64,000 nucleotides of DNA from Deltaproteobacteria bacterium (GCA_024275145.1 JAJRZR010000044.1:863-64862); one strand, 5' to 3'; positions 1-7,412 are shown, counted from the stretch's first letter. The notes: generated from the letters alone by a model not told the origin. Numbers and translations: made by a program.

Positions 1-1
1 T

Positions 2-553
2 GTCTTTTCTGCGTTAGTTGAGGGAGGGCTAGAATATCGAGGGGCGATTATTAGACTAGTAAGAACGCTACGAGGTGGAGATAGGCCTAAAAATGCTGAA
101 AAAGAATTTGAAGACGTTTGCTCCATGCCAAGAGGGTGCTATGAGCCTTGGGGGTTATTTCGCAAACCACTACCTAAAGGCTTTAAAGTCAGTGATTGCC
201 TCAAAAAACACTGCACAGGAGGTTTACGTAGAAAGATGGATGGATCGCCTTTTGAGGATGTTATCGAGAGTGAGCGAACCCCCAAGGAAGAAAAAGAAAT
301 TGCTAATCATCCCAGCTTAAAACCACAATCATTTTTACGAAAAATTGTATACGCTGCCCTGCCTTTAGGTGAAGGTATCATTGTTGACCCCTTCATGGGG
401 TCTGGTTCGACAATTGCTGCTGCTGAATCTATTGGGTATACTTGTATTGGAGTTGAGAGACATATCAAATATTACAAGTTGGCTAAAGATTCTATTCCAA
501 GGCTTGCATCCATTAACAAAGGTGATAATCAGCTTAGTATCTTTGCCTATTGA
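2..553 (+). CDS. DNA methyltransferase, beta-class N4-cytosine/N6-adenine type (C-terminal part; 5' end outside window)
   Basis: Frame 2 is open from base 2. Motif HPSLKP is followed by SAM-binding motif DPFMGSGST and IGVE. Converges on and overlaps the endonuclease gene by 20 nt. Confidence 0.8.
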   Translation, partial: VFSALVEGGLEYRGAIIRLVRTLRGGDRPKNAEKEFEDVCSMPRGCYEPWGLFRKPLPKGFKVSDCLKKHCTGGLRRKMDGSPFEDVIESERTPKEEKEIANHPSLKPQSFLRKIVYAALPLGEGIIVDPFMGSGSTIAAAESIGYTCIGVERHIKYYKLAKDSIPRLASINKGDNQLSIFAY

Positions 554-1187
554 CTGTAACATCATAAATCCAGTTGGCCTTCATTTTACTTACTCCACTT
601 CTATTAACACTTGCTGTAATTGTCCTCCTGCTTGTTTTTGAACGTCCTGAGAAATTCCAGTCTGATTCTTCTAGCTTTGCAGCATAAACACCTTTAAATA
701 CGAACGACTTTGGGCCAATTCCGTTCTTTTTATCATTTGAAGTGTTGCTATCGAAATGAAAAACCATCAACCAAACAGCCTCAGGATTGTGCCCTTGCCA
801 ACCACTCGCGTGCCTAGAGGCTTTTATTTCAACACCTTCATTTGAATATTGCACAGAATTTTGAGGAAATTTGCCTGTCGGAATCAAATCTGGATGGCCA
901 TTATGATATTGGTTTTTTACAAGCGTCGGACAATATTTAGGAATACTCGCATTCATGAACTCGCCAACTATGCTACTGAAGTTTGCCGGCATTAAGAAGC
1001 TTTCTAGGCGAGGCATTCCCTTATTATACAGCTGTTTATTTATGAAGCCGATAAATGAAATAAACTCCTCCATAGCCTTAATAATGTGATCCACCTCAAG
1101 GCCATATGGAAGAGAGCATTCTCTATTAAAACATGAATGGCTAACTGGAACAGGATTGCACGCTTGTTCCTCTGTATTATTTTTCAT
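534..1187 (-). CDS. Type II restriction endonuclease (PD-(D/E)XK-like), family not recognised
   Basis: 217 aa. GHPDLIP ... GVEIKASR fits a PD...ExK core. Start overlaps the stop of the controller gene by 11 nt. Paired with a methyltransferase. Confidence 0.6.
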   Translation of the reverse strand: MKNNTEEQACNPVPVSHSCFNRECSLPYGLEVDHIIKAMEEFISFIGFINKQLYNKGMPRLESFLMPANFSSIVGEFMNASIPKYCPTLVKNQYHNGHPDLIPTGKFPQNSVQYSNEGVEIKASRHASGWQGHNPEAVWLMVFHFDSNTSNDKKNGIGPKSFVFKGVYAAKLEESDWNFSGRSKTSRRTITASVNRSGVSKMKANWIYDVTVNRQRY

Positions 1188-1428
1188 CTTTCTCGGACGT
1201 TGAAAATTGATTTGGCCTTAATAATTGATGCGGTTCAACGCCGAGCACACCAGCTATTTTTTCGACATTTTTAGCAGAAATATTTTTCTCGCCTCTTTCT
1301 ACTGCCCCGATATACGTTCTGTGCAGTTCAGCCAGTTCAGCCAATTTTTCCTGACTGAGTCCTAGTTGCTTGCGCAAGGCTCTGAGATTTTGCCCTATGG
1401 TGGTTAGTATGCCCGACATAATAAGCAA
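1177..1428 (-). CDS. Restriction-modification controller (C) protein, XRE-family HTH
   Basis: 83 aa. LSQEKLAELAELHRTYIGAVERGEKNIS is a typical C-protein/XRE helix-turn-helix. Lies directly upstream of and overlapping the endonuclease gene. ORF-track start is TTG at 1428; an ATG lies at 1419. Confidence 0.75.
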   Translation of the reverse strand: MLIMSGILTTIGQNLRALRKQLGLSQEKLAELAELHRTYIGAVERGEKNISAKNVEKIAGVLGVEPHQLLRPNQFSTSEKDEK

Positions 1429-1445
1429 TATAAACTTCGATGCAC

Positions 1446-1470
1446 TCTATAAGTCTACAGACTATAAGTA
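1446..1470 (-). promoter_or_regulatory. Probable C-box operator/promoter of the C-R operon
   Basis: Coding-strand sequence TACTTATAGTCTGTAGACTTATAGA has two direct ACTTATAG copies and the dyad AGTCT-GT-AGACT, about 18-27 nt upstream of the C gene. GACT/AGTC dyads around TATA are the hallmark of described C-boxes (from memory). Confidence 0.5.
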
Positions 1471-1503
1471 GCATTGCGATTAGAATAGTCGAGCGGATTA
1501 GTG

Positions 1504-1588
1504 GCCGAACGTCTAAAGTCACCAGCAGACAAGACGCAAGGCCGAAGGCCGCAGCGGATTGGCGGTCTGGTGCACCCTATTGTTAGGC
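1504..1588 (-). repeat. Integron attC site (85 bp) closing the RDD-protein cassette
   Basis: Minus-strand reading is GCCTAAC ... GTTCGGC with an internal imperfect dyad. The plus-strand centre ACGCAAGGCC..GCAGCGGATTGGCGGTC is homologous to the centres of the other attC sites. Confidence 0.75.
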
Positions 1589-1619
1589 GACACAATTTGT
1601 AGTAAACACTTTTATGCAA

Positions 1620-2138
1620 TCATACTTCTATTACTATAGTACCTGCAGCAAAATCATGTATTGCTCGCTTCTTGCTTGAAAAAATAATCGAAAAAAACGA
1701 TATAATTCCCAAAAAAATCTTTACTATTATTCGGACATAGGCCTGAAAAAGAGAAATTCTTTCTAAATTAGCAAAATTTCGAACTCTAACTCCCATTATT
1801 TTTTGTCCCACGGTGCATTTTTTGCTCGTAAGCAAGGGCTCATATATAAAAAACATTGAAAGGATAATACTTATTCGTAATAAAATATCGATATTAGTAT
1901 CATTAGAAAAAATATATGATGTAAATACCATCACAATCAGAATGACCATTCCATCTATGAAGGTTGCTAAATACCTCCTTACAATTGTTGGATATTTTAT
2001 TCCGCTGTCACTAGTGGAAACATGGCGAACTTCTTCGGATATTTCTGGTTTCTCACTTTTTAGAAGCCATTCACCGCAATGCTTACATTTTATTGCTTCT
2101 GATTGAATCTCTTCAGCGCAATATGGACATTTTTTCAT
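1620..2138 (-). CDS. RDD-family membrane protein with N-terminal zinc ribbon (integron cassette ORF)
   Basis: CPYC...CKHC zinc ribbon, then hydrophobic helices and RYLATFIDG ... HDFAAGT typical of the RDD domain. Confidence 0.6.
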   Translation of the reverse strand: MKKCPYCAEEIQSEAIKCKHCGEWLLKSEKPEISEEVRHVSTSDSGIKYPTIVRRYLATFIDGMVILIVMVFTSYIFSNDTNIDILLRISIILSMFFIYEPLLTSKKCTVGQKIMGVRVRNFANLERISLFQAYVRIIVKIFLGIISFFSIIFSSKKRAIHDFAAGTIVIEV

Positions 2139-2424
2139 TTCAATGCCCTCCTTCCGTGGCCACTATAATCATTGTTGTCATTTGGAACATGCATAATACT
2201 GGACACCTTTTGCGACTCACACAAAATTATTTCCCTTTCTCAACTTTCACCAATAATAATGTAGGGGCGGACTTTAGTCCGTTCACCCCTCACCCCCAAC
2301 CTCTCTCTCAGAGGGAGAGGAGAATTTACGAATATAAAAAGTGTCTAGTACTAAGCATATTGCGAAACAGTTGTCAACATGAAAACTAATCTATTGACGA
2401 ATTTATTTGCGAATTCAAAAGGTG

Positions 2425-2567
2425 TACAGTAGAGACCTTTGCAAAATTGGTATTCAGCCCGGAACAGCCATTGCGGGGACAGGCAAAATCGCAGATTTTG
2501 CCTGTCCCCATTAGACAAAGCGTAGCGCTTGAACCACCGGCGCCACGTTTTGCAAAGGTCTCAGTAC
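2425..2567. repeat. Nested perfect palindrome (MITE-like or structured element) inside the cassette array
   Basis: 15-bp perfect arms GAGACCTTTGCAAAA (2432-2446) / TTTTGCAAAGGTCTC (2548-2562) enclose a perfect 16-bp stem, 2475-2490 / 2494-2509, with a 3-nt loop. GTAC lies at both outer ends. Confidence 0.6.
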
Positions 2568-2689
2568 TAAGTGGAACATGATAAATTATCCTCCAACCTT
2601 ACCTCTCGAGGCATACGACCTCTTTCCGTTATAAAGTAAACTGGAGAGTAATATGGCACATCTAATTGTTAGGCGATTCTATATGGCCT

Positions 2690-3361
2690 TCATTTCATGA
2701 CATGCATAAGTTGTTGGCCAATATATGCACCGTATATAAATAAAGGGATAAAACCAAATACTCCACCAAGTGGAATAGCAATTAACATCATATAATCTTC
2801 TCCCCAAATTGTTCCTAAAAGAGCCAGCAACATTGTTGATGTCCATGAAACAAGGCCAGCAATAACTAAAAAACCAATTATTGTAAGAAAATTTGGTATA
2901 ATTTGGATTTTATCGATAGGTAGATTAGGATATGCTGAGTGAAGAATTTCTAGAACCAAAATCAATGAAATTGCACCTGATACAAAAGTATGTAATGACT
3001 GAATTTGGCCAAGCACTGGGATAAATGCAAGGATTATAGTTGCAATAAGAATGATTAAAGCGGCCTTTATCATAGGCCAAGGTGTTGAAAATAATATCTT
3101 CCAAGGAAAAGACCAAGCAGCGTCTTCGGAAAATCCAAGCAGAATAGGGAACAAAGTAAATACAAAAATAAGGGTGGCCAGAGCTTGGAATACTGGAGTG
3201 ATAAGCATTCCACCGAGACAGCCCACAGCTTCATTCTTTTCGCCAATTAAACCAAAAATCATTATGGGGCCTACCGAAATAATAGTGTAAATGAGAGCCG
3301 CCACATAAACTTCCCAAAACGTTAGAACTTTTAGACCCCCAATGATTGAGCTCCAGAACAT
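2690..3361 (-). CDS. Polytopic membrane protein of unknown function (integron cassette ORF)
   Basis: 223 aa, about six hydrophobic helices. AAGGAG RBS between the GTTAGGC cassette boundary and the ATG. No family recognised. Confidence 0.6.
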   Translation of the reverse strand: MFWSSIIGGLKVLTFWEVYVAALIYTIISVGPIMIFGLIGEKNEAVGCLGGMLITPVFQALATLIFVFTLFPILLGFSEDAAWSFPWKILFSTPWPMIKAALIILIATIILAFIPVLGQIQSLHTFVSGAISLILVLEILHSAYPNLPIDKIQIIPNFLTIIGFLVIAGLVSWTSTMLLALLGTIWGEDYMMLIAIPLGGVFGFIPLFIYGAYIGQQLMHVMK

Positions 3362-3377
3362 TTATTTCTCCTTTTTT

Positions 3378-3470
3378 GCCTAACGTAAAAGCTTAGGTGC
3401 CGACATGAAGCAAGGCCACGCAAAGCGGGGCTGCAGCGGAATGGCGGTCACCTACAGCGACTTGTTCGGC
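3378..3470 (-). repeat. Integron attC site (93 bp) closing the HigBA cassette
   Basis: Minus-strand reading is GCCGAAC ... GTTAGGC. Identical at 88 of 93 positions to the site at 4980-5072. Confidence 0.8.
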
Positions 3471-3494
3471 CAACAGGCCGATTTGTATATAAAA

Positions 3495-3839
3495 TCAACA
3501 AGTTCTTGCTTCATCTTCTGACTTCAAAACAGGTTCTATCTTGGACAGCTCTTCTTTCATCTGCTGTTCGGCTTGCCATAAATCATAATTCTGTTGCATC
3601 CTAAGCCACAATCCAGGACCATTACCTGCAAATCTGCCTATTCTAAGGGCCATTTGTGGAGTAATCGGATGGGTACAGGCTAATATCCGATGTAACTGTT
3701 GGCGGGAGATGCCAAGCCTCCTGGCTGCTTCAGTAACAGATATACCCAGAGCTGATAGTACGTCTTCACGTAGAATCTCTCCTGGATGAATCGGAGCCCT
3801 TTTTAATGGACGCTTTACAACATATTCTGCCATGATCAC
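3495..3839 (-). CDS. higA: HigA-family antitoxin (XRE HTH)
   Basis: IHPGEILREDVL...ISVTEAARRLGISRQQLHRIL...ITPQMALRIGRF matches the HigA antidote family. Lies 3 nt downstream of higB. Confidence 0.85.
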   Translation of the reverse strand: MIMAEYVVKRPLKRAPIHPGEILREDVLSALGISVTEAARRLGISRQQLHRILACTHPITPQMALRIGRFAGNGPGLWLRMQQNYDLWQAEQQMKEELSKIEPVLKSEDEARTC

Positions 3840-3842
3840 ACC

Positions 3843-4118
3843 TCAGTGATATTGCTCCAGATCAACTCTTAGAGCATGGTCCCTTTCCCATTCAAAAGTA
3901 ATACACCAGGGACCGTTAACGTGAATGCTATAACGCTTTGGTTTTCCTTTAAGACCATGAAAATTAAAACCTGGAATGTTCAACTCCATAAGAACCTCTG
4001 CCTGATCCAAAGCCTCCAGCCTCCTTAATATGCGCCTTTGCAGATCAGATCTGATTTTGGCAGAATGGCCTTTTTCAAACAATTCAACCAGCCCCTTGTG
4101 CTTGAAACTTTTGATCAT
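3843..4118 (-). CDS. higB: HigB-type toxin (plasmid maintenance system killer, RelE/ParE superfamily)
   Basis: 91 aa. MIKSFKHKGL..LF ... LHGLKGKPKRYSIHVNGPWCITFEW matches the HigB/killer family. Toxin-first order is typical of hig loci. Confidence 0.85.
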   Translation of the reverse strand: MIKSFKHKGLVELFEKGHSAKIRSDLQRRILRRLEALDQAEVLMELNIPGFNFHGLKGKPKRYSIHVNGPWCITFEWERDHALRVDLEQYH

Positions 4119-4124
4119 ATTAGC

Positions 4125-4152
4125 AGTGTATCCTATTTTGATACACTGTCAA
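4125..4152 (-). promoter_or_regulatory. Cassette-internal promoter with dyad operator for higBA
   Basis: Minus strand reads TTGACA-16 nt-TACACT. The perfect 8-bp inverted repeat AGTGTATC / GATACACT overlaps the spacer and -10, just upstream of the higB ATG. Confidence 0.5.
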
Positions 4153-4194
4153 TTACCTTGTTACAAAACTATTGGAACCCACCTAATTTATAAG

Positions 4195-4274
4195 GCCGAA
4201 CGATTTACATCAGCGGCTGGCAGCCGCAAAGCGCAGCGGCGCGGTTGACAGTCCGCTGGATGTGATTGTTAGGC
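4195..4274 (-). repeat. Integron attC site (80 bp) closing the methyltransferase cassette
   Basis: Minus-strand reading is GCCTAAC ... GTTCGGC. Inner dyad ACATCAGCGG / CCGCTGGATGT has one unpaired base, as in attC L boxes. Confidence 0.8.
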
Positions 4275-4283
4275 TTATGCTGT

Positions 4284-4979
4284 TCATTTCCTTCCACTAA
4301 TTATTGCAAAGTTCAAATAACGCCAGTGACAAGCTGTATGTTTGAAACCAGTTTCTTCTAGCCACGATAGTTGGTTTTCAATGGAGACCGGATGATCTTT
4401 TCCTTTATGTTTGTTATACCAAAACTCGTCATCCTCACCATTGGTTTTCATAAAATTTCGCCATATCGAATAATGCCATTCTGTTATGAATGGATCGTCA
4501 TCGACGATGATTTCTCTGGCGATAAATATTCCATCTTCTGAGAGTGCCTCGTAAATAACCTGGAAAACAGACTTTCTTTCTTCATCAGTCAAATGATGCA
4601 AGGTCAATCCCGCCAGAACCACATCATAGCCTGACCCGACAGTATCCCTTTTGTAATCTCCCTGCTGAAAGGTGACCCGTCCTTCATATTTGCTTAATCT
4701 CTCTTGGCACAATAAAAGCATCTCTTCGGTTAAATCGAAGGCGTGTACATTCGCTCTCGGATACATTTCTAGAGCAAGCTCAGACAAACCACCTGGACCC
4801 GAACCTAAATCCAGCACCTTTATATCCTGTCCCTTGTCAAATGGGATCAATTCACAAAGAAATCTTTGTCCGGTTTCATATTCAGGAATAATCCGATTCA
4901 TCAAGCCAGCATAATCACCGACCTGTTTTCTGAAATGCTCTTGTACTTGTTTTTCGTCCATGTCTTTCTCGATTTTCAA
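4284..4979 (-). CDS. Class I SAM-dependent methyltransferase (integron cassette ORF)
   Basis: VLDLGSGPGGLS motif I. ORF-track start is TTG at 4979; the likely ATG is at 4961. Confidence 0.75.
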   Translation of the reverse strand: MKIEKDMDEKQVQEHFRKQVGDYAGLMNRIIPEYETGQRFLCELIPFDKGQDIKVLDLGSGPGGLSELALEMYPRANVHAFDLTEEMLLLCQERLSKYEGRVTFQQGDYKRDTVGSGYDVVLAGLTLHHLTDEERKSVFQVIYEALSEDGIFIAREIIVDDDPFITEWHYSIWRNFMKTNGEDDEFWYNKHKGKDHPVSIENQLSWLEETGFKHTACHWRYLNFAIISGRK

Positions 4980-5072
4980 GCCTAACGTAAAAGCTTAGGT
5001 GCCGACATGAAGCAAGGCCACGCAAGGCGTGGCCGCAGCGGAATGGCGGTCACCTACAGCGACTTGTTGTGC
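4980..5072 (-). repeat. Integron attC site (93 bp) closing the first cassette
   Basis: Minus-strand reading is GCACAAC ... GTTAGGC. Near-identical to 3378-3470. Confidence 0.8.
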
Positions 5073-5084
5073 CATTTTTTTCCT

Positions 5085-5729
5085 TTAATTCCCAGTATAT
5101 CCACAAACTCCAGCCCGGGGAGAATTGACAACCGGAAGATACATCTCCTCTCCACATTCATGCTCTTCTGCACATCTAGCACATAACCATCCCTCACCTT
5201 CCCATTGACATTGTGTACAAATTATCTCTGCAGGATTTCTCTTACATTCATCGCATAAAATTATAGGCTGAGCATTACGTGCTACTATCATTATCTTTTG
5301 ATTCCCCTTTATCCTACCTGCATATTTTGACACATATTTCACTGTTAGTTCTGTGGGTTCACCAAAATCATATGTATACTCGAGAATTACCCCTGGCTTG
5401 AAAATTTCATGTATTTTCTTCTGCATGCTTATCTCTCTATACATTCCAGAATACGCAAAGATGCTCATGTGACCACAGCATTCAACCCAAATATCTCGGA
5501 GAAAATTATCTAGATCTCTAAGACGTGCTTTTTCTTTGATAAGTATATGGAGAAAATAGTCTGCATTGTGACTGGCATAAATATGTAAGTAGTAAAGCTG
5601 CCTTGCCTTTACTTTCGGCATTGCTTGGAAGTGCTTGTCCAGACAACTTTTTATATGCCTACCTATTCCAGCTCGTGTAAATTTAGAGCCACATATCCTG
5701 CAAGTTGATTTATTTACTTGAGATTTCAT
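5085..5729 (-). CDS. PRiA4_ORF3-like (MM3350-like) domain protein with N- and C-terminal Cys-rich zinc-binding segments (first integron cassette)
   Basis: CRICGSKF...HIKSC finger. The core YYLHI...LRDLDNFLRDIW...EYTYDFGEPTEL resembles the plasmid pRiA4b ORF-3 family. C-terminus is CDEC..C..C...C..C..HEC. Confidence 0.45.
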   Translation of the reverse strand: MKSQVNKSTCRICGSKFTRAGIGRHIKSCLDKHFQAMPKVKARQLYYLHIYASHNADYFLHILIKEKARLRDLDNFLRDIWVECCGHMSIFAYSGMYREISMQKKIHEIFKPGVILEYTYDFGEPTELTVKYVSKYAGRIKGNQKIMIVARNAQPIILCDECKRNPAEIICTQCQWEGEGWLCARCAEEHECGEEMYLPVVNSPRAGVCGYTGN

Positions 5730-5757
5730 TGCTTCTTCTATGTCTTTTTATGTCTTG

Positions 5758-5880
5758 GCACAACAGTTGTAATAGATGGAAAAAGTCCATTATATCGGCC
5801 TAAATAGCTGGACATATTTTCCAGTTATTCGGCTATAGAACCGATAAAAACGGAAATACCCATCCATCTTTGATTTTTTT
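5758..5880. other. attI region; attI x attC crossover heptamer GTTGTGC (minus strand, 5764-5758)
   Basis: Lies between the first cassette and intI. The six bases after G|TT (TTGTGC) are the exact complement of the R'' box GCACAAC of the first cassette's attC. Confidence 0.5.
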
Positions 5881-6909
5881 GTGAAAAAATCCAGTTATCG
5901 TGATAGTATGTTAGCAGCTATGGAAAATCAAACAAAATTTTACCCTAATCCAAAATTGAAGCTCATGGATCAGGTACGTGAAGTACTTCGATATTACCAC
6001 TACGCATACCGGACAGAGCGATCCTATTGTAGCTGGATACTTCGTTATATTCGTTTTTATAGAGGGAAGGTCCATCCTGCAAAGATGGGCGCAAGGCATG
6101 TAGAAAGGTTCCTTTCACATCTGGCAACCGACGGTGGGGTGTCCGCCTCAACCCAGCGTCAGGCCCTCAATGCCCTCGTTTTTCTTTACAGGGATGTGCT
6201 CCACAAGCCCCTGGGGGGCACTATTGCCCCCATACGCTCCAAGAAAACGCCAAGGCTTCCCACGGTCCTGAGCCAGGAGGAGGCAAAGGGACTTTTAATG
6301 CACCTTTCCGGCTCCCATGCCCTTATGGCAAAGTTACTTTATGGAGCGGGTCTGAGGCTCATGGAATGTATACGTCTTCGGATAAAGGACGTGGACTTTT
6401 CCAGAAACCGTATCCAAGTCAGGATGGGAAAGGGAGGAAAAGATAGATCCACTATCTTGCCTCAGAGTATAAGGGGTGAATTGTACTTTCACATACAGAG
6501 AGTAAAGGTACTGCACCAGGAAGATCTTGAGAATGGCTTTGGCGATGTCTATCTGCCCGAGGCCGTTGCAAGAAAGTACCCGAATGCCCCCAGGGAAACC
6601 GGATGGCAATACGTATTCCCTTCGAAAAGGCTTTCTAAGGACCCGAGATCGGGCAAGGTGATGCGGCATCACGTATTGGAATCAGGCTTGCAGAAGGCGG
6701 TAAAGCGCGCGGCGAAGAGGGCAGGAATCGACAAGCGAGCTACCTGCCATACTCTTCGGCACAGCTTTGCAACCCACATGCTTGAAAGAGGCATCAACAT
6801 TAGAATCCTTCAGGAGCTTATGGGGCATACAGACCTTAAAACCACGGAGATCTACACCCATGTCATGGACAGGGACATCTCCAGGCTTTCTAGCCCCTTG
6901 GATGATTAG
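5881..6909 (+). CDS. intI: Integron integrase (tyrosine recombinase, IntI family)
   Basis: [60 protein letters not shown] and [14 protein letters not shown], plus the IntI-specific insert [24 protein letters not shown]. Divergent from the cassette array. Confidence 0.9.
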
Positions 6910-7412
6910 CCAGGGGGTAAGCCTTTTTCGGGAGGCCTTTTGTGTCTATGCATCACATTGCTTACCTTGACACAAAGGGCTGTGGTAGTTATCAGAGTGG
7001 GCTTATTGACGGCCCAGCCTCATAAACGATACGGTACTTGCCGGGATGATATAAATGGCTATATTTTCATGTTCAGGGGACCTGCCCAGGTTGCCAAACA
7101 GGCACAAATCCAGTCCATGGAGTTTGCTGGTCTGCCCAAGCTTCCTATCGCCGGGTAATTTAAGTTGCAAAGGTATGTCTCTGCCCCTCCACTTCGCGTT
7201 TTGGGCAAGTTTGCTTGTGGCTTCAAGTACCTGAACATCAAGATTGCTGGAATCCGCGCACTCCGGATGAAGCAGACGTTCTGACAGATTACACAACCAG
7301 CCACGGAAATGCCCTCGTTCAGCCAGCATCCTTTTTTCTAGGGGCATTTGACGTCAATCTGACATGAAATTTTGTGGTTTATAACGACATGGCCTTATCG
7401 AAGGAGGAAGTT

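Follow-up and report, generated by a model that had tools for sequence, protein, structure and literature searches.

The integrase end of a probable chromosomal integron in an uncultured Desulfobacterota-type bacterium

The first 6,909 nucleotides of a 64,000-nt stretch of DNA from a Deltaproteobacteria bacterium (GCA_024275145.1, JAJRZR010000044.1:863-64862; hereafter the window) carry a gene for an integron integrase, intI, a predicted attI site beside it and, to its left, four cassettes that each end in an attC site and lie on the opposite strand, followed by a type II restriction-modification locus at the left edge. We read positions 1-6909 as that end of a chromosomal integron which holds the integrase, in an uncultured bacterium of Desulfobacterota type, a reading to which we assign a probability of roughly 0.93. 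It is carried by the identity of the integrase, by what the attC sites show in structure and family membership, by the complementarity at cassette junctions, the boundary of attI and the chromosomal setting. A preliminary description, made from the sequence alone, had proposed the same arrangement of a divergent intI, an attI and cassettes derived from circles, and that interpretation is now supported by a profile match, a structural match, covariance modeling, compensatory base changes, strand-biased folding and the content of the flank.

The integrase itself is the most readily classified component. Its 342-aa open reading frame (ORF) was present as first described, together with the recombinase boxes then quoted; the frame is intact and the catalytic motifs are all conserved. 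A search with an integrase-specific profile had been suggested as a check, and the protein reaches 440 bits against the NCBIfam integron integrase model TIGR02249 (curated cutoff 265), whereas it stays under the cutoff of the class-1-type equivalog NF011946 (300.9 against 435 bits) and of every XerC, XerD and XerA model, with the XerC and XerD profiles at 133-138 bits, far under their cutoffs of ~330. Pfam assigns generic Phage_integrase and SAM-like domains only. The solved structure that it matches best is 2A3V, the integron integrase of Vibrio cholerae ("IntI4"; E 8.9e-94, 318 bits), in an alignment that spans residues 31-340 and includes the integron-specific insert, which stands opposite GVWLPTALKEKYPNAPYEFRWHYLFPS; the catalytic motifs (R, K, HxxR, H and Y; for example, IYTHV) are matched to the same motifs of 2A3V. 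By contrast, XerC-like and XerA structures align in two pieces that skip residues ~206-270, that is, the insert. The IntI1 peptide that the preliminary description had quoted for comparison is genuine, with 100% matches in at least 5,000 plasmid records, and corresponds by position to the insert segment of the window protein. Judged by these alignments, the product of 5881-6909 is a tyrosine recombinase with an integron-specific extra domain, and hence an integron integrase.

Four attC sites, whose coordinates had been given exactly, read R''...R' on the minus strand (Table 1). Because the cassettes sit on the minus strand, the attC bottom strand is the plus strand of the window, and when folded with DNA parameters it is about 4 kcal/mol stabler than the top strand at all four sites, a strand bias that attC sites should show. 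This bottom-strand fold had been proposed as a check, and the expected R and L boxes and extrahelical bases are seen. Alignment of the four sites yields a common 28-pair hairpin with compensatory changes at nine pairs. The R stem of this hairpin (GCC.AACG/TGTT.GGC) is followed by 4-5 unpaired spacer nucleotides and then by a long L stem, whose 3' arm on the plus strand (the R''-L'' arm) bears two single-base bulges, one of them an invariant T. Two sites, 3378-3470 and 4980-5072, differ at 5 of 93 positions, exactly as first counted, and are thus 95% identical. The homogeneity typical of sedentary integrons that had been seen in this holds for that one pair, whereas the other five pairs are 62-71% identical. 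The apical stem (3424-3432 against 5026-5034) accounts for three of the five differences; there the tip of site 4980-5072 is a perfect GGCCACGC/GCGTGGCC pairing and that of 3378-3470 is weakened; the other two are R''-box bases that co-vary with the first bases of each cassette.

The same site family recurs beside related integrases. We built one covariance model (R1) from the four window sites and scanned it, at E <0.01, over 80 loci that encode IntI relatives. It retrieved 75 sites, 74 of them on the plus strand upstream of intI, the strand and side found in the window, in genomes ranging from Desulfobulbaceae metagenome-assembled genomes (MAGs) to Luteimonas. A second model (R2), built from these 75 foreign sites only, was run with filters off over all 64 kb. 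It recovered precisely the four sites of the window, at E 8e-13 to 2e-10, plus their reverse strands; no further match came under E 0.8 on the expected strand, and everything else stood at E >2. Under R2 the window sites score as well as those of the relatives. The site at 4980-5072, for instance, reaches 97.9 bits under R1 and 61.1 under R2 (E 1.8e-12). All four sites are thus accepted by purpose-built substitutes for the covariance model that had been proposed as a check. Across the 75 foreign sites, pairing reaches 96% of cells (33-43% in slid controls), and both sides are changed in 24 of the 28 pairs; the alignment (A2) was fitted to the model and these counts are therefore somewhat inflated, though the margin is large. 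Rfam, which holds no attC family, places no family in the window at gathering thresholds and returns only noise in 1-7000 at E <1. In three Luteimonas loci (L056, L059 and L077) the arrays are long and the cassettes very short, the attC sites being 220-900 nt apart; upstream of intI, sites of two length classes (~68 and ~120 nt) alternate, nearly all with identical GCCTAAC/GTTAGGC boxes.

Cassette junctions supply a further line of evidence. When the minus strand is cut between G and TT, the first six bases of all four cassettes exactly complement the R'' box of the same cassette: TTGTGC (5763-5758) with GCACAAC (5072-5066), TTAGGC (4985-4980) with GCCTAAC (4274-4268), TTCGGC (4200-4195) with GCCGAAC (3470-3464) and TTAGGC (3383-3378) with the R'' box GCCTAAC of attC 1504-1588. 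The two R boxes that now stand inside one attC are perfectly complementary at none of the four sites. A match within the cassette combined with no match within the site is what circular cassettes inserted singly should leave behind, and it supports the original proposal that each cassette was once a circle closed through one attC. All four box pairs first quoted are exact reverse complements; the fourth had paired TTAGGC with GCCTAAC at 2674-2668, where there is no attC and we find a probable, unfolded half-site relic, discussed below. There are few box types, so a permutation on the window alone gives only ~1/12, and the comparative data carry the weight. Pooling window and relatives, 37 of 53 adjacent attC pairs obey the rule. 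Many of these are uninformative because identical GCCTAAC/GTTAGGC boxes match in any order; the informative pairs include those of L002, which has three different box types.

The predicted attI adjoins intI. On the minus strand it reads CCATCTATTACAACTG up to the cut and TTGTGCC beyond it. The attI regions of relatives align with it from the AAC of the R box toward intI (79% over 117 nt for L001; L033, L005 and L006 match over the core), and the common core consists of this AAC followed by AGT..TAATA..TGGAAA. On the cassette side the similarity is gone, and the variable R-box bases are not the same across genomes. Because conservation ends at the AAC of the R box, we place the crossover between 5764 and 5763, which supports this point as the predicted start of cassette 1. 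Between 5772 and 5828, the attI-intI intergenic region also holds three exact copies of ATARMTGGAMA, which has no other exact copy in the 64 kb. Of these, one lies directly beside the L-like box, and the other two make up a palindrome with 12-nt arms at 5803-5829 (AATAGCTGGACATATTTTCCAGTTATT); similar TGGAAA/TTTCCA blocks stand at the same place in 11 relatives (L001, L005-L008, L010, L013, L014, L016, L024 and L033). These repeats are candidates for accessory IntI-binding sites or for the operator of a regulator. Cassette 1 would presumably be driven by a cassette promoter (Pc), and direct reading of the sequence gives a lone TATAAT, a candidate -10 element, on the minus strand at ~5795-5790, ~25 nt upstream of the crossover.

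Table 1. Features at the left end of the window (positions counted from its first nucleotide; the slash in G/TT marks the cut)
Feature	Position	Strand	Details
Type II restriction-modification locus	2-1509	mixed	left of the last attC; C, REase-like and methyltransferase genes
Type II DNA methyltransferase, C-terminal third	2-553	+	PADLOC MTase_II, 141 bits, profile positions 200-326 of 331
Restriction endonuclease (REase)-like ORF, 217 aa	534-1187	-	PADLOC REase_II, 27.6 bits (weak)
C (control) protein	1177-1428	-	PADLOC Control_protein, 83.8 bits
attC	1504-1588	read on -	85 nt; fold + strand -15.9, - strand -11.9 kcal/mol
Cassette 4, composite, 1,874 bp	1510-3383	-	two membrane-protein ORFs and attC 1504-1588
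RDD-family zinc-ribbon membrane protein ORF	1620-2138	-	RDD PF06271, 61.5 bits
Noncoding	2139-2653		in cassette 4
Miniature inverted-repeat transposable element of 131 nt (MITE)	2432-2562		inside cassette 4; perfect 15-nt terminal inverted repeats (TIRs) GAGACCTTTGCAAAA, inner perfect 16-bp hairpin, AGTA on both flanks
Probable attC R''-arm relic	2654-2674	-	in cassette 4
Membrane-protein ORF	2690-3361	-	in cassette 4; unannotated, multi-pass
attC	3378-3470	read on -	93 nt; fold + strand -20.0, - strand -15.4 kcal/mol
Cassette 3, 817 bp	3384-4200	-	higB toxin 3843-4118, higA antitoxin 3495-3839 and attC 3378-3470
attC	4195-4274	read on -	80 nt; fold + strand -22.4, - strand -18.4 kcal/mol; R2 E 2e-10
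Cassette 2, 785 bp	4201-4985	-	class I S-adenosylmethionine (SAM)-dependent methyltransferase ORF 4284-4979 (Methyltransf_25/31/12/11) and attC 4195-4274
attC	4980-5072	read on -	93 nt; fold + strand -23.4, - strand -19.4 kcal/mol
Cassette 1, 778 bp	4986-5763	-	ORF 5085-5729 (214 aa, Cys-rich) and attC 4980-5072
attI (predicted) and intI-attI intergenic region	5758-5880	-	R box GTTGTGC 5764-5758; crossover G/TT 5764/5763; conservation in relatives
L-like box TTACAAC	5772-5766	-	attI region
intI, integron integrase	5881-6909	+	342 aa, GTG start; alternative ATG starts 5908, 5920

By analogy with the integron family, from which we take the mechanism, these parts would work together as follows. 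IntI, transcribed on the plus strand away from attI, would act on an array whose four attC-ended cassettes lie to its left on the minus strand. The attC bottom strand would fold into an imperfect hairpin, its R and L stems separated by an unpaired spacer and the L stem carrying two single-base bulges on the R''-L'' arm. Recombination of this folded strand with the double-stranded attI would insert a cassette, and recombination with another attC would excise one as a circle. Cutting between G and TT would leave the first six bases of an integrated cassette complementary to its own R''. We infer that the integrase would be active today.

The integron is chromosomal and unlinked to mobility genes. 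To the right of intI, 57 kb (7.4-64 kb) of housekeeping genes include those for an FmdB-type zinc-ribbon protein, pgeF, an amino-acid permease, cobalamin synthesis, aconitase, a CCA-adding enzyme, lptD and lon, and ORF, NCBIfam and Pfam annotation of the window placed no transposase, tni, conjugation or plasmid gene adjacent to intI. GC content is 38-43% in the array and 47-51% in intI and the chromosome. Relatives of the integrase occur at ~140 loci in GTDB representative genomes, the closest being 80% (L001) and 73% (L002) identical, in hosts labeled "Deltaproteobacteria", Desulfobulbaceae, Electrothrix and Thermodesulfobacteriota MAGs; the best identity in metagenome collections is 73%, and plasmid-borne integrases reach 56% at best (47% for IntI3). 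The closest Lon protein (75%) comes from MAG JALWNK01, the same MAG that holds the 73% integrase (L002, JALWNK010000058.1), and the array there has the same type of attC as the window (R1 matches of 45-76 bits). Near intI in the 80 loci with IntI relatives we found no counterpart of a cassette or right-flank protein, bar weak HigBA and helix-turn-helix (HTH) matches.

Cassette 4 departs from the simple pattern of one attC per unit. Its two membrane-protein ORFs are separated by a noncoding stretch of 529 nt, and a fifth attC considered there, at 2567-2678, was rejected: R1 gives 9.1 bits (E 6.9), R2 does not find it, a truncated search gives 4.5 bits, and the region folds no better than shuffled sequence (z +0.9). 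What remains is the GCCTAAC at 2674-2668. Over its 32 nt, the stretch 2654-2685 shares 72% identity with the equivalent arm of attC 1504-1588, and three occurrences of the 10-mer ATTGTTAGGC in the window compare with 0.11 expected. A lost attC probably left this GCCTAAC behind as a remnant of its R''-L'' arm. Because the TTAGGC at 3383-3378 is matched equally well by the R'' box of attC 1504-1588, the two membrane-protein ORFs now form one composite cassette, which would have arisen by fusion. In terms of mechanism, the internal attC would have decayed to a half-site and an IS5-type MITE would have inserted inside the cassette.

The assignment of that element (DNA fold z -8.0) follows from its ends, which are identical to those of ISNme1, a member of the IS5 family (PMC4596501, Table 2). 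Reference genomes of at least eight phyla contain 63 stretches in which the exact TIR pair keeps this spacing, many of them in the same genomes, with hosts that include Neisseria, Suttonella, Chlorobiota, Chloroflexota, Bacteroidales, Thermodesulfobacteriales and candidate phyla radiation (CPR) bacteria, and the phylogenetic spread of identical ends is striking. Among the copies only the ends are conserved; a 5-bp target duplication is seen in 28 of 67 and a 4-bp one (AGTA) here. The window element thus resembles the ISNme1-derived MITEs known as Neisseria ATR elements in its TIRs, its size class (~110-140 nt), its multicopy occurrence and its short target duplications, but it differs in its unrelated internal sequence, its Desulfobacterota-like host, its place inside an integron cassette and the lack of a parent insertion sequence in the window. 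At its left end the MITE abuts a 235-nt segment (2197-2431) bounded by a 16-nt inverted repeat at 2197-2212/2416-2431 (TACTGGACACCTTTTG/CAAAAGGTGTACAGTA) and holding a hairpin motif of the GGGGTGAGGGG/CCCTCTGAGAGAGAGG type. We considered this repeat pair as a second MITE and rejected it, as its inner 10+10 nt gave 43 mostly single-copy matches genome-wide against a chance expectation that we estimate at ~17-40. The noncoding region 2139-2690 folds as RNA with z -4.6.

Several observations weigh against our reading of a chromosomal integron. A sigma-70 consensus scan of 5600-6300 found neither Pc nor an integrase promoter (Pint). The models R1 and R2 were purpose-built and stand in for the curated attC model of IntegronFinder, and the alignment behind the pairing counts was fitted, as noted above. 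The R boxes GTTCGGC and GTTGTGC deviate from the textbook GTTRRRY. The genes that flank the integron are not syntenic with those beside its closest relative, and those in JALWNK01 also differ, which leaves vertical inheritance of the platform no more than a possibility. Finally, the decay of one attC and the insertion of a MITE mean that the array is degenerating in part.

This last point leads to the most serious alternative, namely that the locus is an inactive fossil, colonized by a MITE and losing its attC sites, whose cassettes are now fixed chromosomal genes. The half-site relic at 2654-2674, which does not fold, the IS5-type element, the absence of a consensus Pc or Pint from the scanned region and the four or five cassettes visible at most would all fit such a history. 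We nonetheless think it unlikely, as the intI frame and its catalytic motifs are preserved, four intact attC sites score like those of relatives, and the presence of 95%-identical sites on different cassettes, together with the perfect junction rule, argues against long neutral decay. That the integron is instead a mobile one, on a plasmid, transposon or genomic island, appears very improbable to us: the array is AT-richer than the neighboring DNA, intI is not flanked by the same genes as in its closest relative and a MITE is present, but housekeeping genes begin directly to the right of intI, transposase, tni and conjugation genes are missing beside it, the integrase is <60% identical to all plasmid-borne ones and under the class-1-type cutoff, and its divergence from the nearest MAG (73%) tracks that of Lon (75%). 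We can dismiss the notion of an XerC/D-like or phage-type recombinase beside repetitive extragenic palindrome (REP)-like intergenic repeats, which might draw on the generic Pfam domains and on how common intergenic palindromes are in bacteria, since the Xer profiles fall far short while the integron profile and insert are there, the repeats have R/L boxes, a strand-biased fold and the G/TT rule, and the attC models, which find no other sequence in the window, have matches upstream of intI in dozens of genomes.

Turning to what the integron carries, none of the cassettes is a recognizable resistance gene, in agreement with what was first noted. The Cys-rich protein of cassette 1 has 830 homologs, all hypothetical, the more distant of which carry PF07929 (pRiA4b ORF-3-like), so that it would be a distant member of that family. 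Homologs at 64-69% identity in L304 and L305 stand without a nearby attC, and we therefore set aside the idea that cassette 1 is a traveling cassette. Cassette 3 encodes a HigBA toxin-antitoxin pair: HigB matches HigB-like_toxin PF05015 at 63 bits and HigA matches TIGR02607 at 107 bits (cutoff 47.7). The best promoter-like site in 1-6100, the near-consensus TTGACA-16-TACACT at 4152-4125 on the minus strand, lies just upstream of higB and overlaps an operator-like palindrome at 4119-4132/4140-4153 (ATTAGCAGTGTATC...GATACACTGTCAAT), which is expected for a self-regulated toxin-antitoxin cassette; the pair, with its own predicted promoter, probably acts as a stabilizer of the array. The array had been called a reservoir of uncharacterized functions. 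This stands for cassette 1, whose protein has no assigned function, but not for HigBA, the SAM-dependent methyltransferase of cassette 2 or the control-restriction-methylation system at the left end that is possibly a cassette.

At that left end, the methyltransferase gene is convergent with the C and REase-like genes and runs out of the window, frame 2 being open from base 2. Its position on the plus strand contradicts the earlier statement that every ORF to the left of intI lies on the opposite strand. We do not count the 217-aa ORF as a firm restriction enzyme, as it has, apart from a weak PADLOC match, no relative in the Protein Data Bank (PDB) and no Pfam or NCBIfam match. The GC content of 2-1509 is ~40%, cassette-like, and neither R1 nor R2 finds an attC in 1-1500. 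The locus may be a fifth cassette, starting at TTCGGC (1509-1504), or the chromosomal flank of the array. The window stops ~1.5 kb past the last attC, and the source contig of 73,156 nt extends the 64,000-nt window by at most ~9 kb. The integron had been called complete, which is right in the sense of an intI with at least one attC; in the sense of a whole array the word is too strong, as further cassettes may lie to the left.

Comparison with known systems places the locus among chromosomal integrons of its own lineage. The V. cholerae superintegron has ~180 cassettes and highly uniform VCRs (V. cholerae repeats) of ~120 nt. The window shares with that system (VchIntIA and its VCRs) a chromosomal setting, a divergent intI, an integrase that aligns over its full length with the extra domain, interrelated attC sites, self-promoted toxin-antitoxin cassettes and cassettes mostly of unknown function, but its integrase is distant (318 bits), its phylum is another, and four attC sites are seen, of 80-93 nt and 62-95% identity. 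Only four delimited cassettes are visible, short of the tens that mark the long arrays of sedentary integrons. Mobile integrons of classes 1-3 have the same machinery and site architecture, whereas the window has an integrase <60% identical to any on plasmids and under the NF011946 cutoff, and has no Tn402/Tn21 context, resistance cassettes or 3' conserved segment. More widely, mobile classes 1-5 call for an integrase almost identical to a class reference in a transposon or plasmid setting, from which the best plasmid match of 56% and the NF011946 score set the window apart. The nearest systems are integrons in Desulfobacterota or "Deltaproteobacteria" MAGs (L002, Desulfobulbaceae, Candidatus Electrothrix and Desulfospira joergensenii), with integrases 64-80% identical to that of the window and the same attI core, attC family, strand and side, and junction rule, but with different cassette content and flanking genes. 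Desulfobacterota are already listed among integron-bearing phyla, and chromosomal integrons typically carry cassettes for toxin-antitoxin and restriction-modification systems (PMC8618304). Arrays outside Gammaproteobacteria had been called poorly explored; as a claim of novelty this does not hold for the present one, given that listing and the ~140 relatives in GTDB.

Overall, this integron is an ordinary instance of a well-known system and leaves the knowledge of integrons unchanged. A bolder view, which we regard as doubtful, is that it stands for an integron type that is active at present and specific to one lineage, a deep and poorly sampled clade of Desulfobacterota, in which the attI repeats would be undescribed accessory or regulatory sites, R boxes such as GTTCGGC and GTTGTGC would be tolerated, and attC decay with fusion and MITE insertion would be a route to multi-gene cassettes. 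What the locus adds is a well-delimited platform of intI, predicted attI and four intact attC sites from a lineage with ~75% Lon identity to its closest sequenced relatives. It displays the textbook signature of cassette circularization with unusual clarity and offers a small example of array decay in its probable attC relic and MITE insertion. It could also provide a test case, outside Proteobacteria, for attI accessory sites, R-box tolerance and dependence on host factors.

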